NCBI GenBank assembly: GCA_963747695.1
Contig: CAVVFV010000010.1
Coordinates: 261,618-325,617 of the forward strand
Direction of reading: 5' to 3'
Length of the DNA: 64,000 bases
From: Candidatus Falkowbacteria bacterium
GTDB lineage: Bacteria > Patescibacteriota > Patescibacteriia > Patescibacteriales > WJLG01
In this document: positions 5,200 to 61,974 of the stretch, piece by piece
Numbering within the stretch: the first letter of the stretch is position 1
Layout: each line of letters begins with the position of its first letter
Notes under the pieces: model-generated
The model's input: only the letters and a program-made list of their open reading frames with translations
Databases searched by the model: none
What the model was told of the DNA's origin: nothing
Program-made: the position numbers and the translations under genes

Positions 5200-7945
5200 C
5201 TCTCATCACCTCTCTTTCAAAGGTAGTATTCCAGGATTGGAATAAACCTTCATAGTCAAGATATCGACCTTGCACTGAAATGCCCGGCTGGTCGGTAATT
5301 TCGCCGACTAACAAGGCGTCGGCACCGAACAACTTTTCCACTTTCGCAGCCTCCGACTGTTTGACTTCCACCAGCGCTGATCCGAAACTTTCCGGAAACA
5401 GCTCGGGACACAATTGGGTTCTCACGCCCAATCCCGATCCTTCCACTCCTTCGAACAGCCGACGGAAGATTCCGCCGCAATTGATGGGAGCCGCGGAGCA
5501 GAACAAATTTCTGCCGGCTCCCCGCTCAACTTTGTCGAGGAATGGACGCGCGGCTGCGATCCCGATGCTGTCGACGGTCGGACTGAAAATGTCCAGCGCC
5601 GAAGCCAACAGCGATCCGCCCAGCGATTGAGCTTGTCTGCCGATGGCATAAAGGTAATTACCCGGTGATTGCCAGCAATGCAATCTTAATTGCCGAGCGT
5701 CCTTGATTTTGCCCATCGCATAGATTGCCACGCTGATCGGCACATTAATCACGACTCCGCGATGTTCAGCGGAACCGGACGAACTATCCTTGCCGGTGAT
5801 GAACGGTGTCCGCAGTTTTTCAGACAGATCCGAAATACTTTGGACTTGCTCTCTCAAATACCAGTACGCGTAAGGATCCAGGCATGGCGTGTAAAAATTG
5901 TCCGCCAGGCAGATGTCATAGAGATAGACCCCGGCCACTACTTGCGTGACGATCGCATCCAACATGGCGTTGATCGCCGCATTGACCGGATTGGCGTCGA
6001 ATTGCCACGGACTGTAGCTGAAACTGTGCGTCAGCCCGTAATTCTTGCCATAGACCGGCTTTTGCACGGCCAAGGCTGAAGGGATGTTATAATTCTTTCC
6101 CCACAGCGGGCCCTGAAAACTAATGCCTTGGACTGTCGAGTCATACTGCGTTGTCGCCCATTTCTGATTACAAATGTCGAAATGGCCGACCACCTTCTGA
6201 CCCATCTCCTGAACATTGTCCAAAGTGATCGTGGGGAATTTTGCCTCATCCTTGGCCTGGGGCGGAACTATCACTTTGACGTCCGCGGGCAAAGGACAAC
6301 GATCGAAATACTTATACGGCATATCGAAGAGAATTTCACCGGACAGGGGCATAGCGGCAGAATATTTTTTGATCGTCGGATCATCGATAAACTGCAACCG
6401 CCCATTACCGGTGAAGACGCCGATAACCGTCGCTTCCAACCCGTACTTCTTGTAAATCTTCATCGCCAGTTTGAGTTTGGCCGGTATGATGCATTCGGCA
6501 AACCGTTCCTGGCTTTCTCCGCTGACCACGATCTTCTTCGGTAAACCGGCGCACTTCAAGGGTATATGCGCGGTGTTGATCAATACTCCGCCGCGATAGG
6601 ATCCCCAGGCATACTTTACCGGCTCTCCGAGCTCGCCAAAAGCGGAAGGAAAACCAGCCGCGCCGAAATCATTCCCGGCTCGGGCGCATCTTTTGTCCCG
6701 GAGCTCTCTGGTGGCGCGCATCTGCCTTTGCTCAGGCGTCGGATTGCCGATCTGAACGTGACAATTGTCGCCCTCATCAGTATGCTTATCCTGTTTAATG
6801 GAGCTTTCCAAAGCGCCCATAAAACCGTCATTCCCGGTTTTGCCGCCGGAAATTACGGCCAGGTCGCCTTGGCGCGGAACGCCCCGATGGGAGAATTCCT
6901 CTTTGGTCATCCCCACGGTTATTCCCAGCGCAAACGGCTTGCCGGTGAAGCCGGGATGACTGAGCATCCTAGCCAAGAGCATCGGAATGCCCATCGGATT
7001 GCCGTAATCCCGGATCGCCCGCACGGTATCGCGCGCGATAATACAGGCTGACAACACACAATCAGCAATTTCGCCGTACTTCTTCTGGGCGAATTCGCCG
7101 ACCGCCGTCATCTCGATATTGCCGATCGGGATGGCTCCCAGGGCAAACCGCAAGATATCGCGGATTACGCCGCCGATCTTCGTGAGCTGTCCGCCGTAAG
7201 CTTCTTTGCCGGCGGGACTATTGTGAGTTTCTCCCTTCAAGACCGCGACCAACTTCTTGAAGAATTTCCAACCGCCGGCATTGTCGATAAACGCCGATTT
7301 CATATTGCGGTTTTTGATTCTCATGGTCGCGCCTTTGAGGATCTTGAACAACCCGAGTTTTTTCCATTTGGTATGGTTGCAGTGATCAGACCATCTGACC
7401 GCGAAAATATACAGCCAGACGTCGCTGACCCGAGGGATATTTTCTTCCTTCTGGATTTTGACCAGTTCCTCCATTTGCTCCCTGTCCATCGATAACCGAT
7501 AGTTCTTGGAGAGGGCCAGCAATTCATCGGTCGACATACCGGTCAGATCGAAATATTCGATCGGCTGGGCGGATCCTCTGGGCCGCAAGGTGGTCATATC
7601 CGGTTCTTTGTCTTCGAACCAGACTTGCACCATCCGGTTGCAGGTCACACCTTTGGCCGAACCATTGTAATACCGATGAGCGACTTTGGCCGCCAGGACC
7701 TCGACGCCGTATTTACGGCAAGCGCCGCAAATCTCGTCGCTGGCCGGATCGACCACGCCATTGTGATACATCAGATGAAGGAAGTGGCCGTCCGGCATTT
7801 TTTCCACGATCCTTTCGGTATTGGCATCGTGAAAAAGTTCATTCGCCAAAGTGGCAATGTCCGGATCGGGCTGCTCAATCTCCAAATGATACACCTTGTA
7901 AACATCAGTCTCGCCTTTGGGGGCGACAGCAATACTGTAGATCAT
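5189..7945 (-). CDS. purL: Phosphoribosylformylglycinamidine synthase subunit PurL, with ~170-aa N-terminal extension (possible PurS fusion)
   Basis: ETHNSP..GG.IRD motif and duplicated AIR-synthase-like domains. At 918 aa it is longer than typical small PurL proteins. The N-terminal assignment is inference. Confidence 0.8.
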   Translation of the reverse strand: MIYSIAVAPKGETDVYKVYHLEIEQPDPDIATLANELFHDANTERIVEKMPDGHFLHLMYHNGVVDPASDEICGACRKYGVEVLAAKVAHRYYNGSAKGVTCNRMVQVWFEDKEPDMTTLRPRGSAQPIEYFDLTGMSTDELLALSKNYRLSMDREQMEELVKIQKEENIPRVSDVWLYIFAVRWSDHCNHTKWKKLGLFKILKGATMRIKNRNMKSAFIDNAGGWKFFKKLVAVLKGETHNSPAGKEAYGGQLTKIGGVIRDILRFALGAIPIGNIEMTAVGEFAQKKYGEIADCVLSACIIARDTVRAIRDYGNPMGIPMLLARMLSHPGFTGKPFALGITVGMTKEEFSHRGVPRQGDLAVISGGKTGNDGFMGALESSIKQDKHTDEGDNCHVQIGNPTPEQRQMRATRELRDKRCARAGNDFGAAGFPSAFGELGEPVKYAWGSYRGGVLINTAHIPLKCAGLPKKIVVSGESQERFAECIIPAKLKLAMKIYKKYGLEATVIGVFTGNGRLQFIDDPTIKKYSAAMPLSGEILFDMPYKYFDRCPLPADVKVIVPPQAKDEAKFPTITLDNVQEMGQKVVGHFDICNQKWATTQYDSTVQGISFQGPLWGKNYNIPSALAVQKPVYGKNYGLTHSFSYSPWQFDANPVNAAINAMLDAIVTQVVAGVYLYDICLADNFYTPCLDPYAYWYLREQVQSISDLSEKLRTPFITGKDSSSGSAEHRGVVINVPISVAIYAMGKIKDARQLRLHCWQSPGNYLYAIGRQAQSLGGSLLASALDIFSPTVDSIGIAAARPFLDKVERGAGRNLFCSAAPINCGGIFRRLFEGVEGSGLGVRTQLCPELFPESFGSALVEVKQSEAAKVEKLFGADALLVGEITDQPGISVQGRYLDYEGLFQSWNTTFEREVMRDVA

Positions 7946-10362: not shown

Positions 10363-10896
10363 ATGAAAAATAAATACGCTCTATTTTCAATTCCCTTTTT
10401 ACTTTTTACTTTTTACTTTTTACTTCCGCATGCGGCTTTAGCCGTCTGCCCGGTCTGCACCGTGGCAGTCGTCGGCGGCATCGAGTTATCTCGTTACCTC
10501 GGCGTTGACGACAGTATCACCGGCCTTTGGGTCGGCGGTTTGACCGTTTCGCTGATTTTCTGGACGATCGACTGGTTCAATCGAAAAAATATCCGCTTCA
10601 AAGGCCGGAAAATCCTGACCACTATCGGCTATTATGCATTAGTAGTCTTGCCGCTCTATTTTTTAAACATCATTCATCTGCATATTCCCCGCTATGAAAC
10701 TTTCTGCAGCTGCGGTATCGACAAGATGACAGTGGGTATCGCGGCCGGCAGCATCGGTTTTTTGATCGGCGCCCTGCTTTATGAAGAGGTTAAAGCAAAA
10801 AACAACGGCCATGCTCATTTTCCTTACGAAAAAGTCGTCTTCCCTATTTTACCGCTGATTATTTTAAGTATTATTTTTTATTATTTAACCAAGTAA
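10363..10896 (+). CDS. Polytopic membrane protein with CPVC and CSC cysteine motifs
   Basis: The start lies 2 nt after the stop of the Trx-like gene. ALA-VCPVC follows the signal-like N-terminus, then 4-5 TM helices. No recognised family. Confidence 0.5.
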   Translation: MKNKYALFSIPFLLFTFYFLLPHAALAVCPVCTVAVVGGIELSRYLGVDDSITGLWVGGLTVSLIFWTIDWFNRKNIRFKGRKILTTIGYYALVVLPLYFLNIIHLHIPRYETFCSCGIDKMTVGIAAGSIGFLIGALLYEEVKAKNNGHAHFPYEKVVFPILPLIILSIIFYYLTK

Positions 10897-14751: not shown

Positions 14752-14889
14752 AAGTTTGGAATTACAAATTACAAATTATGAATTACAAATTTTATCCAAT
14801 AATTTATCATTTCTAATTTGTAATTTGTAATTTACTGTGGATTAAGCTATCTGTAATTTTAATGTTTTTTCCGCGCTTGTCAAACCGCA

Positions 14890-15555
14890 TTAATATGGTT
14901 TATTTAAGTCGCCGGAATTACTATAGCCGTTGCTTTCCCAATAGCCTTGGTAATTAGAATCGTCGGACAATTCGATCTTGGTAACCCACTTGATCCATTT
15001 GTAACCCCATTTATCTTCAGCCACCAACTGAAAAGGAAAGCCGTACTCCGGCGGGATGGTCGCGCCATTCATTTTGTAAGCCAAGATGATGTCATTATCA
15101 TAAAAGTAACTGAGCGGGAAAGAAGTCGTGTAGCCGTCGGCGGCATACAATATTACCGTATTGGCCGATGATTTCGGCTTGGCTTGATTAAGGAGATCCC
15201 TGACCAGTACTCCCTGCCAGAGAATTTTAGCGTTCCAACCCTCGACGCAAAAGAGCGTAACGACCTTCTGATAATTCGCAAAATTTTTGACCTGGTCATA
15301 AGTATAGCTTTGCGGCGCATCCGCCAAGCCGGTGATATCCAAATGATACGTCGAGATATCAACATGCTGCGTGCCTTTAATTGAAACCAGCGGCATATTG
15401 GCGATCGGAGACAAATTCTGCCCGTTGTAACTTTTAATTTCCACGCTGTCTAATTTAATCGGCTGGCCCAAACTGCAGCCCGCGCCCGCGGTCAGCAAAA
15501 ATACGAAAACGAAAAATAAAGCGAAAACTTTTTGTTTCATATTATTTTTTATCAA
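14890..15555 (-). CDS. Molybdopterin-binding oxidoreductase domain protein (MsrP/YedY-like), exported
   Basis: Lipoprotein-like signal (AGAGCS). FCVEGWNA..W.GV.V.DLL motif of the sulfite-oxidase-fold Moco domain. Confidence 0.6.
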   Translation of the reverse strand: MIKNNMKQKVFALFFVFVFLLTAGAGCSLGQPIKLDSVEIKSYNGQNLSPIANMPLVSIKGTQHVDISTYHLDITGLADAPQSYTYDQVKNFANYQKVVTLFCVEGWNAKILWQGVLVRDLLNQAKPKSSANTVILYAADGYTTSFPLSYFYDNDIILAYKMNGATIPPEYGFPFQLVAEDKWGYKWIKWVTKIELSDDSNYQGYWESNGYSNSGDLNKPY

Positions 15556-37399: not shown

Positions 37400-37485
37400 A
37401 TCAACATAATTACTCGGTAGGAACGCGATACCTTGCGTTCTACAGCCGACGTTTCAATACCCAAGGAACGCAAAGTATTGCGTTC

Positions 37486-38382
37486 CTACGAATTAATAAA
37501 TGGATTTGGTTGATTAAAATCCGGCAAAAATATTTCGCCCGCTTCCGGCTCCTGTGTCCAGCCATTCTCCAGTCCAAGTTCAATTTTTTTCTTTTCCGCC
37601 GCCGCGATTTCTTCGGGCGATATTTGCCGGCTCAATTCCGGAAATTCGGCCGCGCGATTCACCCCGCCTTTTCCGGAAAGGGAGGGGTAAACCGGGAAAT
37701 ACTGGCTCATCAAACTCAAATGGATTTTTTTATCAATAGCGGCGATCTTTTCCAGCGCAGAAAAAGTATTGGGCAAATTATTCGGCAATATCATGTGCCG
37801 AATGATCAAACCTTTTTTGGCCAAGCTATTATCATCAACAGCCAATAAACCAACTTGCCGATACATTTCCCTGATCGCCTTATCCGCCACCTCGGAATAC
37901 TTTGGCGCGTGCGAATATTTCGCCGCCGCGACATCGTCCCCATATTTAAAATCGGGGAGATAAATATCAATCAACCCTGCTAAATCTTTAATCGCCTCGA
38001 CCGATTCATAAGCGTTGGAATTCCAAGCCAGCGGAATTTTTAATCCTTTTTCTTTGGCCAGAACAATCGCCTGCTTTATTTCCCGCCGCCACGGTGTGGG
38101 AGTCACTAAATCAATATTAGCCGCTCCCTGCTTTTGCAGATCCAACATTATTTGTGCCAATTCTTCGACCGAATATTCTTTGCCCAAATTTTCCCAACTG
38201 ATCTGCCAATTCTGGCAAAAAACGCAATGCAAATTACAGCCGGAAAAGAATATCGTCCCCGCTCCGAATTTCTCCCCTCCTTCCGAAGGAGGGGTTTGGG
38301 GGTGGTTTGCCTGTCCGACTAGCGGCGGTTCCTCGCCGAAATGCTTGCCGAACCAAGCAATTTTGATTTTTCTTTCAGCCAT
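37486..38382 (-). CDS. Radical SAM protein (PflX/PflA-like), carrying two palindrome-encoded in-frame inserts
   Basis: GCNLHCVFCQNWQIS CxxxCxxC motif. The inserts PPSEGGEKF and SLSGKGGVNRA coincide with GC-rich palindromes. Confidence 0.75.
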   Translation of the reverse strand: MAERKIKIAWFGKHFGEEPPLVGQANHPQTPPSEGGEKFGAGTIFFSGCNLHCVFCQNWQISWENLGKEYSVEELAQIMLDLQKQGAANIDLVTPTPWRREIKQAIVLAKEKGLKIPLAWNSNAYESVEAIKDLAGLIDIYLPDFKYGDDVAAAKYSHAPKYSEVADKAIREMYRQVGLLAVDDNSLAKKGLIIRHMILPNNLPNTFSALEKIAAIDKKIHLSLMSQYFPVYPSLSGKGGVNRAAEFPELSRQISPEEIAAAEKKKIELGLENGWTQEPEAGEIFLPDFNQPNPFINS

Positions 38383-38429
38383 ACTTAAAGCTTACAACAA
38401 AAGGCGTTCCAATGAAACGCCCTCTGCCC

Positions 38430-38795
38430 TTGTCGGGGTACTGGGATTCGGTCACGGCTCTCGTCGGCTTCCGCCTCCTCGGCCGCGAACCCCGCCTCGC
38501 GATGCGGCTCGCCAAATGCTCGCCACATATCGCTCCGGCATTCAAATCCCATCGCGAGCCAAGCAGTTGGCTCGCTTTACCCCGACAAAAAAACGGCTTA
38601 GGCCGTTTTTCCTTGTCGGGGTACTGGGATTCGGTCACGGCTCTCGTCGGCTTCCGCCTCCTCGGCCGCGAACCCCGCCTCGCGATGCGGCTCGCCAAAT
38701 GCTCGCCACATATCGCTCCGGCATTCAAATCCCATCGCGAGCCAAGCAGTTGGCTCGCTTTACCCCGACAAAAAAACGGCTTAGGCCGTTTTTCC
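38430..38795 (-). repeat. Tandem array (2 x 183 bp, identical) of tRNA-linked GC-rich element, subfamily 1
   Basis: Period 183 bp measured at 38430, 38613 and 38796. Each unit carries tRNA-Pro acceptor strands, a T-loop copy and a terminator-like hairpin. Confidence 0.85.
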
Positions 38796-38798
38796 TTG

Positions 38799-38884
38799 TC
38801 GGGGTACTGGGATTCGAACCCAGAACCTTCCACCTACGTTCCGAGGCGGAACTTCGGTGGACGCAGCACGCACCTTCGTGAAAA
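38799..38884 (-). pseudogene. tRNA-Pro 3' half (anticodon stem 3' strand to acceptor end) with a 38-nt hairpin insertion
   Basis: Minus strand reads GGTGCGTG + TCCACC...GGTGGA hairpin + AGGTT-CTGGG-TTCGAAT-CCCAG-TACCCCG-A. No matching 5' half adjoins it. Confidence 0.7.
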
Positions 38885-39455: not shown

Positions 39456-39501
39456 CTCTCATCGTCTTGTTTGCTCGTCCGCCTTGGGCGGAGGAAGCAA
39501 A

Positions 39502-42154: not shown

Positions 42155-42214
42155 AGGTTTAATGATGTGTTTAATTACGCCTCAATTATAGCAGCTTTTA
42201 GATTTAAAAAACAA

Positions 42215-42814
42215 CCTGACGCAGGTCGGACTGATTCGGTCACGGCTCTCACTCGCTTCCGCCTCCTCGGCCTCGACCCCGGCTCGCGGTGCTCGGCGCC
42301 GGAATGCGCCTCGCACAACGCTGCGCCTTTCGAATCCTCTCATTTTCCATTCTAACTTAAAAGACCTGACGCAGGTCGGACTGATTCGGTCACGGCTCTC
42401 GTCGGCTTCCGCCTCCTCGGCCTCGACCCCGGCTCGCGGTGCTCGGCGCCGGAATGCGCCTCGCACAACGCTGCGCCTTTCGAATCCTCTCATTTTCCAT
42501 TCTAACTTAAAAGACCTGACGCAGGTCGGACTGATTCGGTCACGGCTCTCGTCGGCTTCCGCCTCCTCGGCCTCGACCCCGGCTCGCGGTGCTCGGCGCC
42601 GGAATGCGCCTCGCACAACGCTGCGCCTTTCGAATCCTCTCATTTTCCATTCTAACTTAAAAGACCTGACGCAGGTCGGACTGATTCGGTCACGGCTCTC
42701 GTCGGCTTCCGCCTCCTCGGCCTCGACCCCGGCTCGCGGTGCTCGGCGCCGGAATGCGCCTCGCACAACGCTGCGCCTTTCGAATCCTCTCATTTTCCAT
42801 TCTAACTTAAAAGA
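42215..42814 (-). repeat. Tandem array (4 x 150 bp) of tRNA-linked GC-rich element, subfamily 1 (tRNA-Ser copy)
   Basis: Period 150 bp measured at 42215, 42365, 42515, 42665 and 42815. Copies 2-4 are identical. A 40-nt run is identical to the 183-bp units. Each unit carries an inverted 15-nt copy of the tRNA-Ser T-loop/acceptor region. Confidence 0.85.
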
Positions 42815-42843
42815 CCTGACGCAGGTCAGGTCTTTTAAGTTAG

Positions 42844-43467: not shown

Positions 43468-44964
43468 TCATTGAACCTTCCGCCCGCCAATCGGAAGGTT
43501 TTTATTTTTTTCAGAAATTAAAGCCAGCATGGCGACCAGAATCCAAAACAATGCAGCTAAATCATTTTTAAAATACGGCACATCGACCAAGCCATGGACA
43601 ACAATCACAATCATTGCCGCTAATAAACCAAGATGTAAATATTTATATTCATTTCCCTTAATTGAAAATTTAAAGTTGACAATTGAAAATTTTATTATTA
43701 TCCATGCAAAAATAAATAATCCCGCCAAACCCAGCTCGCTCCAAAAATTCAAAATGATGTCGTGCGGATATAAATATATTTCCACCGGCTGCCAAGTGCG
43801 GGCGCGAACGGCGGCGCTGTTAATCGTATCCTGATGAAAATTAGGATCCGTACCATCATCATAAAAAAAACCTTTCTGGTGATACGGCGCCACGGCAGTT
43901 TGATAATTCCCCAAACCCACGCCTAAAATTTTTGCGTTGCCGTTTAACATCATCAAAGTTTCCTTCCATTGCAAGCGGCGGATCTGACCGGAAAGATCAT
44001 GGGCCGTAATTTTTCTGATGAGCGGTTTCTCGATCGGTGGATAAAAATAGATTCCCGCGCTGGCCACCAGGACAATGATGATAGCCGCGATCCGCGCTTT
44101 TTTATTGGCGTATAAACAAAAAATAAAGGCGGCGGCGGCCAGACCGATCAGGGCGCCGTCGGATTTGGCAAAATAAATCGCGGCTAATGACAAAAGGATG
44201 ATAAACCCCAAAAAGGCTTTGGATAAACCGATCGCAGAAATTCTTTCTTTTGGTAGCGGATAACAGATTTTCTCCTCAAACGGCGTGCATTCCTTTTTGG
44301 CCGGCAGTAATAAGAAGCTGAACAGGACCGGAATGATGGGGCCAAGATACAGGCCGACCGCGTTGGGATAGCCGAAAAACGAGACCGCCCGGCGCGTGGC
44401 TGCCGCGGCCCAGAGCGGATTATCAATCCCGATCCCGGTGAACTTTTGAAAAATCGCGTAGGCGGAAACAAGCAAGGCGCCAACCGCCAAGCTCAAGCCG
44501 ATTTTATTCAAACCATTCTTGCCGGGAAGAATATTGAGGATCAAGACATACAACAAGGCTGGTTCAAAAAAATAGGCCTTCCACAAACCCAAAGAAGCCG
44601 CAGAGAAATGAGGCAGACTGGCCGCGAAAAGTGAAACGATCAACAATAAAATGATTTCAATCCCAAAAGGATATTTTCGCCGGCCTTCCGCGCTGCCGCC
44701 CTTTCGCCACGGGCTGTTCATTAAAAAATCTTTAACTGAATATTTACCGTGCAAAAAATCCCAAAACTTTGTTTTGAAAACAAACCAACAAAAAAAAGCG
44801 ATCAGGATCATCGCCTCCAAAAGCGTCAGCGGGACTAATATTTTGAATCTAACCAAATACAAAGGCAGGCCGGCGATGACGAGCATCACGGCCCAGTCTG
44901 ACCTTTTGAGCGACAAGACAAAAAAGGCGAGTAAAAATATGGCCAAAAATATTGCGTAACTCAT
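43468..44964 (-). CDS. O-antigen ligase/polymerase-like (Wzy_C family) polytopic membrane protein
   Basis: About 12 TM helices with a central periplasmic loop, typical of O-antigen ligase-like proteins. Confidence 0.5.
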   Translation of the reverse strand: MSYAIFLAIFLLAFFVLSLKRSDWAVMLVIAGLPLYLVRFKILVPLTLLEAMILIAFFCWFVFKTKFWDFLHGKYSVKDFLMNSPWRKGGSAEGRRKYPFGIEIILLLIVSLFAASLPHFSAASLGLWKAYFFEPALLYVLILNILPGKNGLNKIGLSLAVGALLVSAYAIFQKFTGIGIDNPLWAAAATRRAVSFFGYPNAVGLYLGPIIPVLFSFLLLPAKKECTPFEEKICYPLPKERISAIGLSKAFLGFIILLSLAAIYFAKSDGALIGLAAAAFIFCLYANKKARIAAIIIVLVASAGIYFYPPIEKPLIRKITAHDLSGQIRRLQWKETLMMLNGNAKILGVGLGNYQTAVAPYHQKGFFYDDGTDPNFHQDTINSAAVRARTWQPVEIYLYPHDIILNFWSELGLAGLFIFAWIIIKFSIVNFKFSIKGNEYKYLHLGLLAAMIVIVVHGLVDVPYFKNDLAALFWILVAMLALISEKNKNLPIGGRKVQ

Positions 44965-45012
44965 AACGCGTAGCGCGTAACGATTCTGCCGTTATGCGTT
45001 ACGCGTTATGCG

Positions 45013-45996
45013 TTATGTGCCGGTCACTGCCAACATATACAAGCCGATGATGATCAGCAAGGCGCCGATGACTTTTTGAAACAAGACTTCGCCGCCCAGT
45101 TCTTCTTTCAGCACTTTTGGATATTTGGCGGACAGGAACATCACGATGACGAAAAGGAAGATATATTGAATGCCCTGCAAAGCGTTGGTGACGGCCACGC
45201 TGCCCATGCTGACCGCCCGATTCAAAAGAATAAAAGCGAAGGCGGCCAGACCGCGGATCAAGAAAAAGAGCACCAAATTTTGCGGCTTATTGCTGTGGCC
45301 GACATGCTTTTCTAAAATCAATTTGCGCCACGACGGGATCAGCAGCATCAGATGCACGCCGATGAAACTGCCCATTCTCGACCAGACAAAACCGCCGATA
45401 AACGGCTGGGTGGAATAGACATATTTGATCAGCACATAGAATACCGCGAAGAAAAAAGCCGCCACCACCGAATTGACGATCAATCGGCTGTTGGGGCGGT
45501 ACTCGGCGTGAATTCCGCCTAAGGAATTGCCAAAAACAGCGCGAACCCGATTGGCCACGGCATGCAGCTCATAAAACCTGGTGTGTTTGACTGAGATCAG
45601 CACACCGCCGATGATCAAAATCAAGAATGCCAGCAATTCCCGTTCGGTCAGCTGCTCGTGCAGAAAGAAGAAACCTAGGACAAAACTGAAAACGGGGATC
45701 AGCGCCCCGACGATCGGCACGACGCGCGTCGCTTCCGACTGATGCAAAGCTTTATACCAAAAAATCAAAGTCGCCAAAAAAATCAGGCCAGCCAGCAAAT
45801 CAACCCCCAGCTGCTGCCAATTAGGAACCCAGGGGTCGAGGAAAAGCAGGAAGATATTCAAGAAACTCCAAATGCCCACATAAAAAGCATAAGCGACCGA
45901 AGAGTGGACCTTCTTGGAAAGCAAGAATTTATCGCCGACATAGACGCCGGCATTGATCAGATAAGAGATGGAGGCGATGGCTAACCACATAATCAA
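45013..45996 (-). CDS. DMT/EamA-family transporter
   Basis: 10 TM helices in two halves. ATRVVPIVGALIPVFSFVLGFFFLHEQLT is typical of the end of an EamA domain. Confidence 0.55.
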   Translation of the reverse strand: MIMWLAIASISYLINAGVYVGDKFLLSKKVHSSVAYAFYVGIWSFLNIFLLFLDPWVPNWQQLGVDLLAGLIFLATLIFWYKALHQSEATRVVPIVGALIPVFSFVLGFFFLHEQLTERELLAFLILIIGGVLISVKHTRFYELHAVANRVRAVFGNSLGGIHAEYRPNSRLIVNSVVAAFFFAVFYVLIKYVYSTQPFIGGFVWSRMGSFIGVHLMLLIPSWRKLILEKHVGHSNKPQNLVLFFLIRGLAAFAFILLNRAVSMGSVAVTNALQGIQYIFLFVIVMFLSAKYPKVLKEELGGEVLFQKVIGALLIIIGLYMLAVTGT

Positions 45997-47997: not shown

Positions 47998-49404
47998 TTA
48001 CTTCCCTGTCCGCCTTGGGCGGATGACTTCTGCCTTAAACAGATCGCCCCGTTCCTTATAATTCTTAAAACAGCCGAAACTGGCGCAGCCGGTCGAGAGC
48101 AGAACGATGTCGCCGAGTTCAGATTCTTGTTTGGCGATTCTAACAGCGTCTTTCATATTATTGACTACTCGTAACCCATAACTCGTAACCCGTAACTCTT
48201 TTTTTAACCGCTCGGACCCTTTACCTTTGAATAATATTAAAAATTTTACTCGCTTATTTATTTCTTGGGCGAATTTTTTGAAATCCGAGCCTTTGTTGGC
48301 GCCGCCGGCCAAGAGAATGATATTTTTCTTTCCCGCGAATGATTTCAAAGCGATAACGCTGACATCCGGCACCGTGGCAAAACTGTCATCAAAATAGCGC
48401 ACGCCGTTAATTTCGGCGACAAATTCCAGGCGATGCGGCAAGCCTTTGAAATTTTTCACTGTCCGAGCCACGATTATCGGCTTGATCTTCAAAATCTTAG
48501 CCACCGCAACTGCGGCGGCGATATTCTCCTTATTATGTTTGCCGATCAAATTGCTGACTAATTCCGATTTTCCGTAAACAATAACCTTTGCCGGAGTTCG
48601 GACGCCGTAATCCTTAATCTGCAAATCTTCATTGACAACTAGATAATCTTTCTTGGCCTGATGAGCGAAAATATTCGCTTTGGCGGTCCAATAATCTTTC
48701 ATCGATTTGTGATAATTCGGATTGTGCGGATCAGCTGGAGCCAGATGTTCTTTGAATAAATTAGTTACCACGGCGATGTGTGGGCTAATATCCAAATCTT
48801 CCAATTGAAAGCTGGATAATTCCAAAACAACATAATCATCCGGCTTAATTTTCTCGATAAATTCAAACGGCGCATTGCCAATATTCCCACCGAGAAAAAT
48901 ATGGCGCTTTCGTAGGAACGCAAGATTTTGCGTTCCTACCTTAAGAATTTCATAAATCAGCGACGAGGTTGTCCCCTTGCCTTTCGATCCGGTGACGCCA
49001 ATGATATTTTTCGTCGGACATAATTGAAAAAATAATTTCATCGGGCTGGATATTTCCACGCCGGCTTTCTTAGCCTTGAGCAGATTGGGATTAAAAAGCG
49101 GGTAGCCGGGCGAACGAAAAATAATGTCAAAATCCGCCAGATGCTTATCGTAATCCTTGCCGGTCATCAAATTTATCCCCGGCATTTTATTCTTCCGCGC
49201 CAATTCCTTAATCTCCAAAAACCGATCGCCCAATTCCGCCGCCGATTTCGGATCGCAAACCGTAATATGCAACCCTTGCCCCGCCGCAGTCTCCGCCGCG
49301 TGACTGCGGCGCAATAAATATTTCACCAACGCCAAATTCTCCACCCCCAACCCGAGCATGGCAATCTTCTTATTCTGCAAAAATTTTAATTTATCCTTTA
49401 TCAT
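47998..49404 (-). CDS. murD: UDP-N-acetylmuramoylalanine--D-glutamate ligase
   Basis: GVTGSKGKGTT P-loop, Mur ligase middle and C-terminal domains. Carries two repeat-derived in-frame inserts. Confidence 0.85.
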   Translation of the reverse strand: MIKDKLKFLQNKKIAMLGLGVENLALVKYLLRRSHAAETAAGQGLHITVCDPKSAAELGDRFLEIKELARKNKMPGINLMTGKDYDKHLADFDIIFRSPGYPLFNPNLLKAKKAGVEISSPMKLFFQLCPTKNIIGVTGSKGKGTTSSLIYEILKVGTQNLAFLRKRHIFLGGNIGNAPFEFIEKIKPDDYVVLELSSFQLEDLDISPHIAVVTNLFKEHLAPADPHNPNYHKSMKDYWTAKANIFAHQAKKDYLVVNEDLQIKDYGVRTPAKVIVYGKSELVSNLIGKHNKENIAAAVAVAKILKIKPIIVARTVKNFKGLPHRLEFVAEINGVRYFDDSFATVPDVSVIALKSFAGKKNIILLAGGANKGSDFKKFAQEINKRVKFLILFKGKGSERLKKELRVTSYGLRVVNNMKDAVRIAKQESELGDIVLLSTGCASFGCFKNYKERGDLFKAEVIRPRRTGK

Positions 49405-49460
49405 GCGTTTTTCTTACTTCTTAATTCCTACTTCTTACTTTCTTGTCCGCCTTGGGCGGG

Positions 49461-52295
49461 TTACTTCTTACTTTCCAGCTTTTCCAATTCTCCCCAACTC
49501 TCCCCGATCTCAATATCCACCACGACCGGAACTTTTAATTTTAAGATGTTGCGCATGATGTCCTGAATGCGGCCGGCCGCTTCTTTCATCTTGTCTTCGC
49601 GCATCTCGAAAACCAGTTCGTCATGGACTTGGATTATCATCTTCACGCTCTCGGAATATTTTTCGTCAATTAAATTTTGAGTGAGGATCATCGCCTTCTT
49701 GATCATATCGGCGTTTGTGCCTTGTAGCGGCGTGTTGACGGCCATCCGTTCGGCGGCGGCGCGGACCGGCGCCACTTGCGAAGTTATCTCCGGCAAGTAA
49801 CGGCGGCGGCCAAATAAAGTTTCGACATAACCATTCTTGCGGGCGAAGGCCACCATATCTTCGGTATAGGTCCGGATATTCTTGTAGAGATCAAAATAAT
49901 GCTCAATGAATTCCTTGGCGCGGTTCAACGGCATATCGGTATTCTGCGCCAGGCCATAAGGTCCTTGGCCGTATAAAATCCCGAAGTTGATCGCCTTGGC
50001 TTCCTGGCGCATCTTTTTAGTAACGTCTTCGATCTTTACATTATTAATGGCGGCCGCGGTGGAAGTGTGGATGTCCAGGTTGCGCTCGAAGGTATCGATC
50101 ATCCTTTTGTCGCCGGACAAATGGGCGGCCAGGCGCAATTCGATCTGCGAATAATCGAGCGACACGATTTTCCAGCCTGGTTGGGAAATAAACGCCTTAC
50201 GGATTTCCTGGCCGAGTTCGGTGCGGATCGGAATATTCTGCAGATTCGGATCAGAAGAAGAAAGACGGCCGGTCGCGGTGACAGTCTGGTTAAAGCTGGT
50301 ATGGACGCGGCCGGTGATCGGATTGACGAGCAGCGGCAACGCCTCAATATAAGTAGATTGTAATTTAGCCAATTCGCGATACTCCTGGATCAACGGGATT
50401 ATTTCGTGCTCGTGCTTTAATTTTTCCAATTCATCGGCGGCGGTCGAATAACCGGTCTTGGTATGGCCGATGCCGGCCGTGGAAATATTTAATTTCTCAA
50501 ACAAGACTTCTTTCAATTGCTGGGTGGAATTAATATTAAATTCGCCGCCGGCCAAAGCATAAATCTTTTTTTCCAATCCCGTGATCCGCTTGGCTAATTT
50601 TTTATCCATCGCCGCCAAAAAATCCTTATCAATTTTCACGCCATTATCTTCAACGGTGGCCAAAACCGGCACCAGCGGCATTTCGATTTCTTCGAACAGC
50701 TTGGTCAGTTCTTTGTCGCGCAGATGCTTAGCCAATTTAGCTTGCAGCCGGTGGGTGAAATCCGCGTCCTCGCAGGAATAGAGCGCCAGCTTGGCCGTCT
50801 CCACCGTGGCAAAAGTTTTCTTATCCTTGCCCGATCCGAGCAAATCTTCCGTGCTGATTTTTTCAAAACTCAACTCGGAAAAAGTCACGGCATCCAGATT
50901 ATGCTGCCTGGTGCCCGGATTCAATAAATACGAGGCGATCATCGTATCAAAATCGATTCCTTTCATATCAATCCCGGCGTGCCGCAGAACGCGCAAATCA
51001 AATTTGATATTATGCCCGCACTTCTTGATCTTCTCATCTTCCAAAATCAGTCTCAACTTTTCCAACCAAGGGTTAATATTTTTTGAACTAGTTTTTTCTT
51101 TAGTGTCAAAAAGACTATTTTGATTTTTCTTCTCTCTTATCTCCTCTCTCTTAACTGAAACATAATAGGCCTCCCCTTCGCGCCAAGAAAAACTGATGCC
51201 GAGCAATTCTTCCAGCAGCGGATCAAATCCGGTCGTTTCCGTATCGATCGTAAATTCTTTTTGCTTAGCAAGCGCCGCCAAAAATTTGGCGAATTTTTTA
51301 TCATCGTCAACTAAAGTATATTTGAATTCAGTCCGATTGCGCTCGAACTTGTCCGCCGTGGCCTGCGCATACGCGGCTTTATCGGAAACTTTGAAATGGG
51401 CGGAAACCAGATCCTGCACCCGCGGCAGTAACGATTTGAAACCCAGCTCGCTGAAGAGCCCGGCAACTTTTTCGCGGTCAAAATCATAAGCGCGGCATTT
51501 TTCCAAATCGAATTTTATCGGTACATCCAGTTTAATGGTGGCTAGATCTTTTGATAAATAGGCATCTTTCTTATGTTCAAGCAATAAATCAACAACCCGG
51601 GGCGGAATTTGGAATTTGGAATTTGGAATTTGGAATTTTTTATACAAATTATCCAGCGTCCCAAATTCTTGCAAAAGTTTAGTCGCGGTTTTTTCGCCGA
51701 TGCCGCGGACGCCGGGAATATTATCGGACGGATCACCGCGCAAAGCTTTGTAATCGATCATCTGGTCCGGCGCGAGGCCGTATCTTTCTTTGACTCGGGC
51801 GTCATCATAAACAACGCTTTCGCTTAAGCCATGCCCCATGGTAAAAACTTTGGTCGAAGAGTCGACCAGTTGCAAAGTATCCATATCACCGGTGACGATT
51901 ATTTTTTCCACTTCCGGACCGACCGTCTTATCGATCGTGCCGATCAGATCATCAGCCTCAAAACCTTGCAGCTCGAAAATCGGGATATTGAAAGCCTTGG
52001 CCACCTCTTTGACGCGCGGAATCTGATCATAAAGATCTTGCGGCGCCTTAATTCTGGTAGCTTTATATTCTTTATATTTAAGATGACGGAAGGTCGGACC
52101 TTTCATATCCAAAGTCAGGGCGATATAATCCGGTTTCAATTCGCGCCAGGCCTTCAATAAGACCGCGGAAAAACCATAAACTGCGTTGACCAATTCGCCG
52201 TCTTTGGTGCGCAAAGTCGGCGGCAGAGCGTGAAAACTGCGGTGGATCAAAGCGTTGCCGTCGATAATGACTAATTTTCCTTTCTGTTTAGACAT
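49461..52295 (-). CDS. polA: DNA polymerase I (5' nuclease, 3'-5' exonuclease-like and polymerase domains)
   Basis: 5'-nuclease GIGEKTA H3TH motif. Polymerase motifs DYSQIELR, RR.AK..NFG..YG and QVHDE. Confidence 0.95.
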   Translation of the reverse strand: MSKQKGKLVIIDGNALIHRSFHALPPTLRTKDGELVNAVYGFSAVLLKAWRELKPDYIALTLDMKGPTFRHLKYKEYKATRIKAPQDLYDQIPRVKEVAKAFNIPIFELQGFEADDLIGTIDKTVGPEVEKIIVTGDMDTLQLVDSSTKVFTMGHGLSESVVYDDARVKERYGLAPDQMIDYKALRGDPSDNIPGVRGIGEKTATKLLQEFGTLDNLYKKFQIPNSKFQIPPRVVDLLLEHKKDAYLSKDLATIKLDVPIKFDLEKCRAYDFDREKVAGLFSELGFKSLLPRVQDLVSAHFKVSDKAAYAQATADKFERNRTEFKYTLVDDDKKFAKFLAALAKQKEFTIDTETTGFDPLLEELLGISFSWREGEAYYVSVKREEIREKKNQNSLFDTKEKTSSKNINPWLEKLRLILEDEKIKKCGHNIKFDLRVLRHAGIDMKGIDFDTMIASYLLNPGTRQHNLDAVTFSELSFEKISTEDLLGSGKDKKTFATVETAKLALYSCEDADFTHRLQAKLAKHLRDKELTKLFEEIEMPLVPVLATVEDNGVKIDKDFLAAMDKKLAKRITGLEKKIYALAGGEFNINSTQQLKEVLFEKLNISTAGIGHTKTGYSTAADELEKLKHEHEIIPLIQEYRELAKLQSTYIEALPLLVNPITGRVHTSFNQTVTATGRLSSSDPNLQNIPIRTELGQEIRKAFISQPGWKIVSLDYSQIELRLAAHLSGDKRMIDTFERNLDIHTSTAAAINNVKIEDVTKKMRQEAKAINFGILYGQGPYGLAQNTDMPLNRAKEFIEHYFDLYKNIRTYTEDMVAFARKNGYVETLFGRRRYLPEITSQVAPVRAAAERMAVNTPLQGTNADMIKKAMILTQNLIDEKYSESVKMIIQVHDELVFEMREDKMKEAAGRIQDIMRNILKLKVPVVVDIEIGESWGELEKLESKK

Positions 52296-52841: not shown

Positions 52842-53747
52842 TCAAGGACAATTCTTCGCCTTGCGCCAACCGGCCTGAACCGCTTCCGCTTCAGTGCAAA
52901 ACCATTTTTCGCCTTTGCTTTCGTCGATTACCGTCTGATCATAATAATCGCAGCCGGGAACGTGATAGATTTTCTCGCCGCTCGCGCTGATATTCCCTTT
53001 GATCAAACAATTATTAGCTGCCGTTGCCGGAAAGGAACTTGAACGCGCCGGCGATAAAGTGACCGCGCTTGGCGGAAAATTTACGCAAGCGCCCGGCGCC
53101 CAGAGCCCCGCGTGATTTTCCTGGGCCAATTTTTGCGCGGTTTTGAATTCTTGTTGATATTGATAAGGAACTTGATAAGTATATTCATAAGCAAAACCGT
53201 CCTGGATTGCCTCCAGATTATAAAATAATCCGTCGCTCCGCCAGACATAGCGTAACGACCTTCCATATATATCTTTATCATCCTGGCTCGGGTCGGCGGC
53301 GATCCGTACCTGCTGTCCATCAAGTAATTTTTTGGCATTATCAGAAGCCTCTTTACCAAAACATTCGACCGGCTTCCGCGGATCCACTACTTCCGGCGTG
53401 TTGATGCCGATCAACCGCAACCGCTCGGTCTTACCATTAATTAAAATATCAATCGTATCGCCATCGACGACCTTGATTACCGGATAAAACTGCGAATTCG
53501 ATTCCCCTCTCGAGAGGGGTGGCGCCGCCGCGGCGACGGGGTGTGTTATCGCGGCAGAATCCGAAGCGATCGAATTTTGGACTGACAACTTTTCCAAAAC
53601 GACCTGACTGACTGCGGCCGCCACCGGTTCTGCCACCGTCTTGTCTGTCGTCACTGCCGGATAAGATCCGAAATGCAACCGGGACGCCAAAATTAAAAAA
53701 ACAAAACCCGCCAGCAATAAAAACAAGGTTTTGTTTTTTCTCCGCAT
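52842..53747 (-). CDS. Secreted thermonuclease (SNase fold) with C-terminal Cys-containing domain
   Basis: VVDGDTIDI...RLIGINTPE SNase motifs, an N-terminal TM/signal, and a C-terminal IKGNIS..GEKIYH.PG...Y....I.....WFC.EAEA..AGWR motif. Confidence 0.8.
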   Translation of the reverse strand: MRRKNKTLFLLLAGFVFLILASRLHFGSYPAVTTDKTVAEPVAAAVSQVVLEKLSVQNSIASDSAAITHPVAAAAPPLSRGESNSQFYPVIKVVDGDTIDILINGKTERLRLIGINTPEVVDPRKPVECFGKEASDNAKKLLDGQQVRIAADPSQDDKDIYGRSLRYVWRSDGLFYNLEAIQDGFAYEYTYQVPYQYQQEFKTAQKLAQENHAGLWAPGACVNFPPSAVTLSPARSSSFPATAANNCLIKGNISASGEKIYHVPGCDYYDQTVIDESKGEKWFCTEAEAVQAGWRKAKNCP

Positions 53748-61647: not shown

Positions 61648-61974
61648 ATGATCTCCTTTGAAATTGGGTTTAGGTACAAACTATTAAAATAATAGCAATT
61701 TTAACTTAGCATAATTAATGCTAATTGTCAACTATACCCCTGCATGATATCTCAATCTTCATCTTATTAATGATTCCCCCATATAATTAAGCACGGGCAA
61801 TCAAACATCTATCAAATCTCGTCGAAGCTAGAGCGAGATTATGCGATCCCTGCCTACCGGCAGGCAGACGCCACTCGCCAGTAGCCGAGGCGGCCATGGC
61901 TTCCTCCCAAGGCGGACAAGCTGGCGGCTTTCACATAAAAAAATTCGCATTATCTAAATTCGTATCATTCGTAG

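Follow-up and report, generated by a model that had tools for sequence, protein, structure and literature searches.

The murD gene in the window analyzed here (the whole 64,000-nt stretch of DNA) carries a 28-nt palindrome of the GTAG...CTAC REP type at 48912..48939, in frame with the minus-strand codons V156-R165. The palindrome belongs to a dispersed repeat family, is absent from outgroup orthologues and occupies a loop position in the predicted structure of the protein. Its distribution among relatives is not vertical, and at other loci the same palindrome is linked to RayT-like transposase genes. The most probable reading, to which we give roughly three chances in four, is that the murD element is a GTAG-tagged REP, non-autonomous and presumably mobilized by RayT, which survives in frame at surface loops.

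The host gene lies at 47998..49404 on the minus strand and encodes UDP-N-acetylmuramoylalanine--D-glutamate ligase of 468 aa. It was identified as murD by its Pfam domains (PF21799, PF08245 and PF02875), by its match to solved structures (3lk7, E = 3.5e-49), by a Foldseek search with the AlphaFold model, in which solved MurD structures were the best hits (3lk7, E = 3e-29), and by synteny, the order polA-murD-GH1-EamA-Wzy being conserved. The palindrome, GTAGGAACGCAAGATTTTGCGTTCCTAC, is perfect and is composed of 12-nt arms and a 4-nt loop (GTAGGAACGCAA-GATT-TTGCGTTCCTAC). Written in its tagged form, GTAG-GAACGCAA-N4-TTGCGTTC-CTAC, it is a 28-bp palindrome with the conserved GT(A/G)G end and the length (20-40 bp) of a GTAG-tagged REP. 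The coding strand reads GTA GGA ACG CAA AAT CTT GCG TTC CTA C, that is, V156-L164 and the first base of the R165 codon, and the resulting VGTQNLAFLR lies five residues ahead of LGGNIG. Coordinates and translation thus agree with an earlier note on this DNA, which had described a translated palindrome just before LGGNIG. The same note regarded the palindrome as GC-rich; since it has 50% G+C in a window of 46.6% G+C, it is not really so. The same murD sequence with the palindrome is present in an independent Logan assembly (L139), and the element is found in four orthologues from different samples, which rules out an assembly artefact.

The murD segment is a lineage-specific insertion, as was found by aligning 33 MurD orthologues of 56-80% identity (alignment A1). 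Instead of the segment, a short linker of the form K-x-x-(G)-K-K is found in basal and outgroup MurD proteins (e.g., P0014, P0032, P0075, P0096 and P0109). The segment is also absent from solved MurD structures, and Streptococcus agalactiae MurD (3lk7) has an 8-residue HMMER gap there. In one outgroup pair, P0038/P0047, an unrelated longer segment is found at the position of the element. The VGTQ-type peptide is present in three other orthologues (P0003, P0009 and P0013), and many orthologues have unrelated peptides, such as THPVSRGASHPSQEG and TTPGTTPKPLLRKEG, at exactly this position. Close relatives have at these codons either nothing or a different palindrome. The uninserted murD genes of L004 and L005 are free of G+C-rich hairpins (stem of at least 7), and inserted murD genes contain 2-4 G+C-rich hairpins, each located at an alignment hot spot. 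The segment is not an ancestral part of the coding sequence, since basal and outgroup orthologues lack it, that of P0038/P0047 being unrelated, and since other genes read this DNA in a different frame. Orthologues that have the same peptide without the palindrome would have spoken against insertion; we looked for them among the orthologues and observed none, the four carriers all keeping the palindrome.

In these four carriers the palindrome is nearly base for base alike, and the flanking synonymous sites differ. Between genomes, 11-12 of the 12 insert codons are identical, versus a background of 0.54-0.68 (P ~1e-3 for pairs that contain the window and for L001-L003, and 0.01-0.08 for other pairs). 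A stem that is nucleotide-invariant in four genomes despite diverged flanking synonymous sites could mean that the hairpin is retained as a cis-acting DNA or RNA signal, acting in mRNA stability or processing, as a pause or as a protein-binding site, and that the peptide is a by-product. The stability predicted for the RNA hairpin (-19.7 kcal/mol, z = -4.8) is consistent with this idea. However, the site is empty or filled by an unrelated palindrome in the nearest relatives, the 28-mer is dispersed over unrelated genes, spacers and both frames, and an Rfam search returned tRNAs only, with no family matching the hairpin. Retention as a signal is therefore unlikely.

The AlphaFold model of MurD has a mean pLDDT of 84. 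Mapped onto it, residues 156-165 are predicted to lengthen the P-loop helix (H143-159) at its end and to form the surface loop before the strand at 169-173, as the earlier note had anticipated for its insertions. Confidence drops to pLDDT 72 in the 161-170 block, and the last C-terminal residues (466-468) are below pLDDT 50.

The palindrome is not confined to murD. A metagenome scan with GTAGGAACGCAA-N4-TTGCGTTCCTAC gave 25 loci, which together with extended matches from a genome scan make at least 28 non-redundant perfect copies. The genome scan, carried out with an 18-base core and a variable loop, returned mostly chance hairpins and terminators of unrelated phyla, and only its extended GTAG...CTAC forms were informative. 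In the viral contigs searched, no REP core was found. Half of the listed perfect copies (14/28) are intragenic, in frame in long ORFs of real genes. Ten of them are read in frame a as VGTQxxAFL and four in frame c as xRNAxxCVPT; the third frame, which opens with TAG, is not among them. ValRS carries the 28-mer at the same site in L009, L116 and L126 (EKYPxVGTQ..AFLP), and further in-frame copies are located in LeuRS (L123), MnmA (L135), an RsmI-like TP_methylase (L138), a PHP-domain protein (L011) and large surface proteins (L129 and L133/L121). In L001 murD the 28-mer is present at two sites in two frames, the second at codons 34-43 (CRNARFCVPT) in a different hot spot, and the peptide of this site is shared by P0010, P0016 and P0020. 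In L132 and L136, upstream ORFs of at least 137 aa end on the TAG of the REP. Since the element is read in two frames in unrelated genes and the TAG of the third is used as a stop, it is the DNA that is conserved as a unit, the peptide being incidental.

CPR genomes are known for insertions in their rRNA genes, and a segment excised from the mRNA or the protein in an intron- or intein-like manner would leave mature MurD unaltered. For the murD element this has no direct support and is highly improbable. The intragenic copies are all in the two stop-free frames with the downstream frame kept. Among the listed copies, no split genes were found around TAG-frame copies, barring the two 3'-end overlaps. 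In addition, 28 nt is indivisible by three, and neither motifs of inteins or introns nor an Rfam match were found in the element.

Several observations on individual copies may be added. The 4-nt loop of the ValRS element is in opposite orientation among L009, L116 and L126 (AATC vs GATT), which implies either loop inversion or independent insertion. The PHP-domain protein of L011 (7259-7999) contains three REP-like in-frame segments, VETQNFASL, VGTQNFAFL and LGTQNLASL. The REP and the RayT family are also found on contigs binned elsewhere, in a Cyclobacteriaceae MAG (L011) and a Bdellovibrionales MAG (L081); either the REP-RayT pair was transferred between phyla or these contigs were mis-binned.

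Within the window, the core pattern has three matches, whereas 0.05 are expected from shuffled sequences, and none of 100 shuffles reached three. Two of the copies lie in one spacer, a degenerate one (GTAGGAACGCGATACCTTGCGTTCTAC) at 37417..37443 and one with an intact 3' CTAC end at 37462..37489. They form a doublet at 37409..37497 that folds as a single long REPIN-like hairpin (32-nt arms, 84% complementary; -38 to -41 kcal/mol, z about -6 to -7), which is the inverted-doublet arrangement of GTAG-tagged REPs. Near-identical hairpins had previously been noted at 37408-37480; the spacer holds two variant copies, and their doublet spans the interval given above. The minus-strand radical-SAM gene at 37486..38382 takes its TAG stop from the CTAC (37486-37489) in which the second of these copies ends.

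Seven loci with transposase homologues (L114, L119, L137, L081, L036, L128 and L011) had been fetched for the palindrome alone. They encode homologous proteins of 170-200 aa that have the HUH-like motif MPNHIHGII and a C-terminal YIxxNP motif. These proteins score 25.4 bits against Pfam Y1_Tnp (PF01797; cut-off 23) and, over nearly the full length, 67.8 bits against the NCBIfam 'REP-associated tyrosine transposase' (NF047646), short of the 80 bits set as the equivalog cut-off. Their alignment with E. coli TnpA-REP (4er8) is weak but covers both motifs. The palindrome lies on both flanks of the transposase gene in L081, just upstream of its start codon in L114, L119 and L137, inside it in L036 and L128, and nearby in L011. 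The transposase family comprises 2828 homologues, many of which are from Patescibacteria and some of which are named RayT by JGI. A transposase gene or RayT homologue was sought in the 64-kb window and none was found, and none of the best 120 of the 2828 homologues is on the 453,905-bp source contig. Since the window has no RayT gene, mobility of the element in the source genome is something that we infer from linkage at these other loci. With mobility here understood in that way, the suggestion of the earlier note that mobile palindromes invade essential genes in frame is supported by the insertion itself, by the copies in unrelated genes and by the RayT linkage.

Weighing against mobilization by RayT, three RayT loci picked regardless of REPs (L140-L142) contained no GTAGGAACGCAA in 20 kb except a variant inside the gene. 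This internal REP variant, GTAGGAACGCGC..GCGCGTTCCTAC, is carried by RayT-like genes at a fixed position (L141, 10266-10293; L142, about 10268; L140, 10266 and 10396; L114, 5538-5565). Its reading frame varies by homologue, giving RRNAPRRVPT or VGTRHGAFL, so the DNA hairpin and not the peptide is conserved. In L140 some 100 nt of additional sequence interrupt the variant. A regulatory role is conceivable for this conserved REP-like hairpin within the RayT gene.

The net gain in MurD is 8 codons and the element is 28 nt, which is indivisible by three, so that a clean cut-and-paste of the 28-mer fails to explain the junctions. Such junctions would suit a local origin by template switching or slippage (quasipalindrome correction), with the similarity of the copies being convergent or due to gene conversion, as would partial half-site duplications, such as VGTQNVGTQNVGTQNLAFL in L036 and L128, and the inverted loop between the orthologous ValRS sites. 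Even so, a local origin is very unlikely because the identical 24 specified bases occur at 28 or more non-redundant sites spread over many genomes and genes, which is beyond local mutation, and because the palindrome is specifically linked to the Y1 transposase family.

The distribution of the element was evaluated in a neighbour-joining bootstrap of the MurD orthologues with 500 replicates. Carriers of the REP at hot spot 2 were monophyletic in 0/500 bootstraps, by which a single ancestral insertion followed by vertical inheritance is ruled out. The window MurD grouped with P0002 and P0004, both of which have other inserts there, in 459/500 replicates, and P0003 grouped with P0021, bearing yet another insert, in 415/500. 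Since the carriers are non-monophyletic and the element is without synonymous drift, the sequences point to repeated insertion at one permissive position or to element-by-element replacement there.

The preferred reading, a RayT-mobilized REP, may imply the following course of events. A RayT-type HUH/Y1 transposase, acting in trans and on single-stranded DNA, would move a 28-bp hairpin repeat, as may be supposed by analogy with REP/RAYT systems of other bacteria. In a compact Patescibacteria genome, many landings would be intragenic. Because one of the three frames of the element opens with TAG, copies landing in this frame would be lost, as would copies in structural cores. Copies that fall in surface loops and in either of the two open frames would survive, probably as neutral insertions, and add 9-10 extra residues (VGTQxxAFL or xRNAxxCVPT). 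In MurD the added residues would thereby lengthen the P-loop helix at its end, together with the loop that leads to the GGNIG strand, and the copy is most probably without function for the enzyme. To our knowledge, transposition of a REP has never been demonstrated in vivo.

GTAG-tagged REPs and RAYTs were reportedly the subject of work by Nunvar (2010) and Ton-Hoang (2012). GTAG-tagged REPs have a GTAG head and a 20-40 bp palindrome, form inverted doublets and flank a Y1 transposase gene (PMC3733652); the association of REPs with RAYT genes was treated by Bertels and Rainey in 2011 (PMC3116915). The family described here resembles them in its copies dispersed over many genomes and genes, in its inverted doublets, in copies abutting the 3' ends of genes and, at related loci, in a transposase gene flanked by the same repeat (L081 and L114). 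It also shares with GTAG-tagged REPs of other phyla the in-frame intragenic copies, including those in tRNA synthetases. In 2013 Di Nocera et al. already described in-frame REPs within genes, among them genes for tRNA synthetases and repair, and related intragenic REPs to Rickettsia palindromic elements (PMC3733652), so the kind is known. Five features differ from the described cases. The host is a Patescibacteria/CPR lineage; about half of the listed perfect copies are intragenic, whereas a small minority of the described GTAG REPs are; the element is a perfect palindrome with the tag at both ends; the RayT homologues fall under the NCBIfam equivalog cut-off; and no RayT was found in the window. 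A literature search for REP/RAYT in Patescibacteria/CPR found no paper. The element is best filed as a Patescibacteria-associated member of the GTAG-REP/RAYT kind with in-frame intragenic copies, a new example of a known phenomenon. It extends REP/RAYT, together with the decoration of essential proteins, to reduced CPR genomes.

Rickettsia palindromic elements (RPE; Ogata et al. 2000, cited in PMC3733652) are the other relevant comparison. They are selfish palindromes of 100-150 bp, restricted to Rickettsia and with no identified transposase, which lie in frame in essential genes of a reduced genome and are translated at permissive surface positions. The murD element is like an RPE in being in frame at a surface position of an essential gene, but it is 28 bp long, has a Patescibacteria host, is unrelated in sequence and is linked to a Y1 transposase family, and is not an RPE.

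MurD contains other repeat-derived sequences. A second palindrome family, CGCCGCAGTC-N10-GACTGCGGCG, unrelated to the first, lies at 49282..49311 in hot spot 1 and encodes RRSHAAETAA. The earlier note had missed it. It is shared at the DNA level with the sister orthologue L006 (P0002), and P0004 has the matching peptide RRSPAAE at hot spot 1. In the model this segment (residues 32-41, with the loop to about 44) is predicted with low confidence, 39-42 being below 50.

At the 3' end of murD, the palindrome TCCGCCTTGGGCGGA at 48009..48023 is read through as the MurD tail IRPRR. The earlier note had correctly recognized the tail as palindromic; however, it had placed the palindrome at 48011-48025 and assigned to it the codons of IRPRRTGK, whereas TGK and the stop codon come from adjoining GAAGTAA-type heptamers outside the palindrome. 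Siblings of TCCGCCTTGGGCGGA are located at 39478-39492, 49446-49460 and 61902-61916. That at 49446..49460 lies in the polA-murD spacer with TTCTTAC heptamers alongside (49411-49440), and polA ends inside the heptamers of this neighbouring copy. P0017 MurD shares the murD tail. The palindrome and the GAAGTAA heptamers are a composite 3'-flanking element overlapped by murD, with no internal insertion.

Cyanobacterial STRR are repeats of the heptamer type, and murD also contains a degenerate array of this period. It lies at 48167..48198 on the minus strand, begins ACTCGTAACCC, consists of 4.6 x 7 nt and encodes ELRVTSYGLRV. A word repeat at 48166-48197 had been taken for a second insert, but the sequence in question, ELRVTSYGLRVV, is this array, with no palindrome and no gain in length. 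All close orthologues have a heptamer array at the site, and its units differ (GAGTTAC, GCGTTAC, TCTCAAA and AAATTAC). In length the segment does not exceed that of outgroups or 3lk7, and the model predicts it as well folded (pLDDT 85; loop and strand 411-414). Since three heptamers make 21 nt, the peptides ELRVTSYELRV, QISNLKSQIS and NTKYQIPNT look internally repeated. The murD array is thus a repeat-derived sequence, neither an insertion nor a palindrome. Arrays of heptamer direct repeats are represented by the TAACTGA repeats of Beggiatoaceae, Cyanobacteria and Bacteroidetes (PMC4679880). The murD array resembles them in its 7-nt units and about 4-5 copies, and the arrays of the window are likewise mostly intergenic, often upstream of start codons and occasionally in ORFs. 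Unlike TAACTGA arrays, they have units that vary between arrays and orthologues, are often inverted pairs and are in frame in murD and polA.

Heptamer arrays and further palindromes are widespread in the window and its relatives. About 20 period-7 arrays with a uniform 4.4-5 copies and differing unit sequences are present in the window, most of them intergenic; in-frame arrays are found in polA (51604-51638, KFQIPNSKFQIP, perfect), murD and Wzy (43660-43691). Palindromes of at least five families are found at the MurD hot spots of the clade. One of them, CCCCTCCTT-N3-AAGGAGGGG, fills murD hot spot 2 of L006 and in the window lies in frame in the radical-SAM gene (38274..38294, TPPSEGG). Another, CCCCTCTCGAGAGGGG, is found in murD hot spot 3 of L006 and L003, and in the window an in-frame copy forms part of an SNase-domain protein, in its N-terminal linker (53504..53519, PPLSRGE). 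When polA, GH1, EamA and Wzy of the window were compared with those of its closest relative, L006, palindromes made up two of the three internal indels of at least 4 codons; the MurD insertions, counted in addition, were all palindromes or heptamer arrays. MurD orthologues of 62-80% identity range from 425 to 574 aa, a spread that results from several palindrome families striking a few hot spots. It is possible, though we hold this only tentatively, that the length differences among orthologous essential proteins of the clade are mostly due to the palindrome families (at least five) and heptamer arrays turning over at hot spots faster than lineages diverge, which would make them a general and so far undescribed driver of protein insertions in CPR. 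Such turnover could account for the large length differences among closely related CPR orthologues. In annotation, VGTQNLAFL, CRNARFCVPT, PLLRKEG and RRSPAAETAAG should be treated as repeat-derived and not as functional motifs, and the copies in MurD, ValRS, LeuRS and MnmA offer natural maps of insertion-tolerant loops.

Some minor observations concern the same repeats. L006 has 12-aa in-frame inserts that are absent from the window genes, SPLERGGRPLAG in PolA (7539-7574) and ESPLLSKEGFGG in Wzy (15339-15374), encoded by CCCCTCTTGAGAGGGG and CCCCTCCTTTCTAAGGAGGGG. Two more MurD hot spots, at A1 columns 346-400 and 496-560, receive inserts of up to about 50 aa, for example in P0002 and P0017, and have no counterpart in the window murD. 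Peptides that recur at these two hot spots, PLLRGVAAPRGRGVLNGG and CHCEES..RRGN..EIASRGARNDK, look like translated widespread repeats. Period-7 arrays dominate the tandem-repeat list of the window (e.g., 10395-10425, 14760-14833, 44957-45017, 49411-49440 and 51604-51638); several are inverted pairs, and some lie just before start codons, as at murD. Two perfect tandem arrays of 61% G+C with a common core of about 70 nt adjoin tRNA genes, one at 38428-38816 (183 nt x 2.1) by tRNA-Pro and the other at 42214-42827 (150 nt x 4.1) by tRNA-Ser. The core was not found in viral contigs. ARAGORN and Rfam made no call on the 183-nt unit; its acceptor ends resemble those of tRNA-Pro, it carries a terminator hairpin of its own, and its predicted fold has -100.9 kcal/mol.
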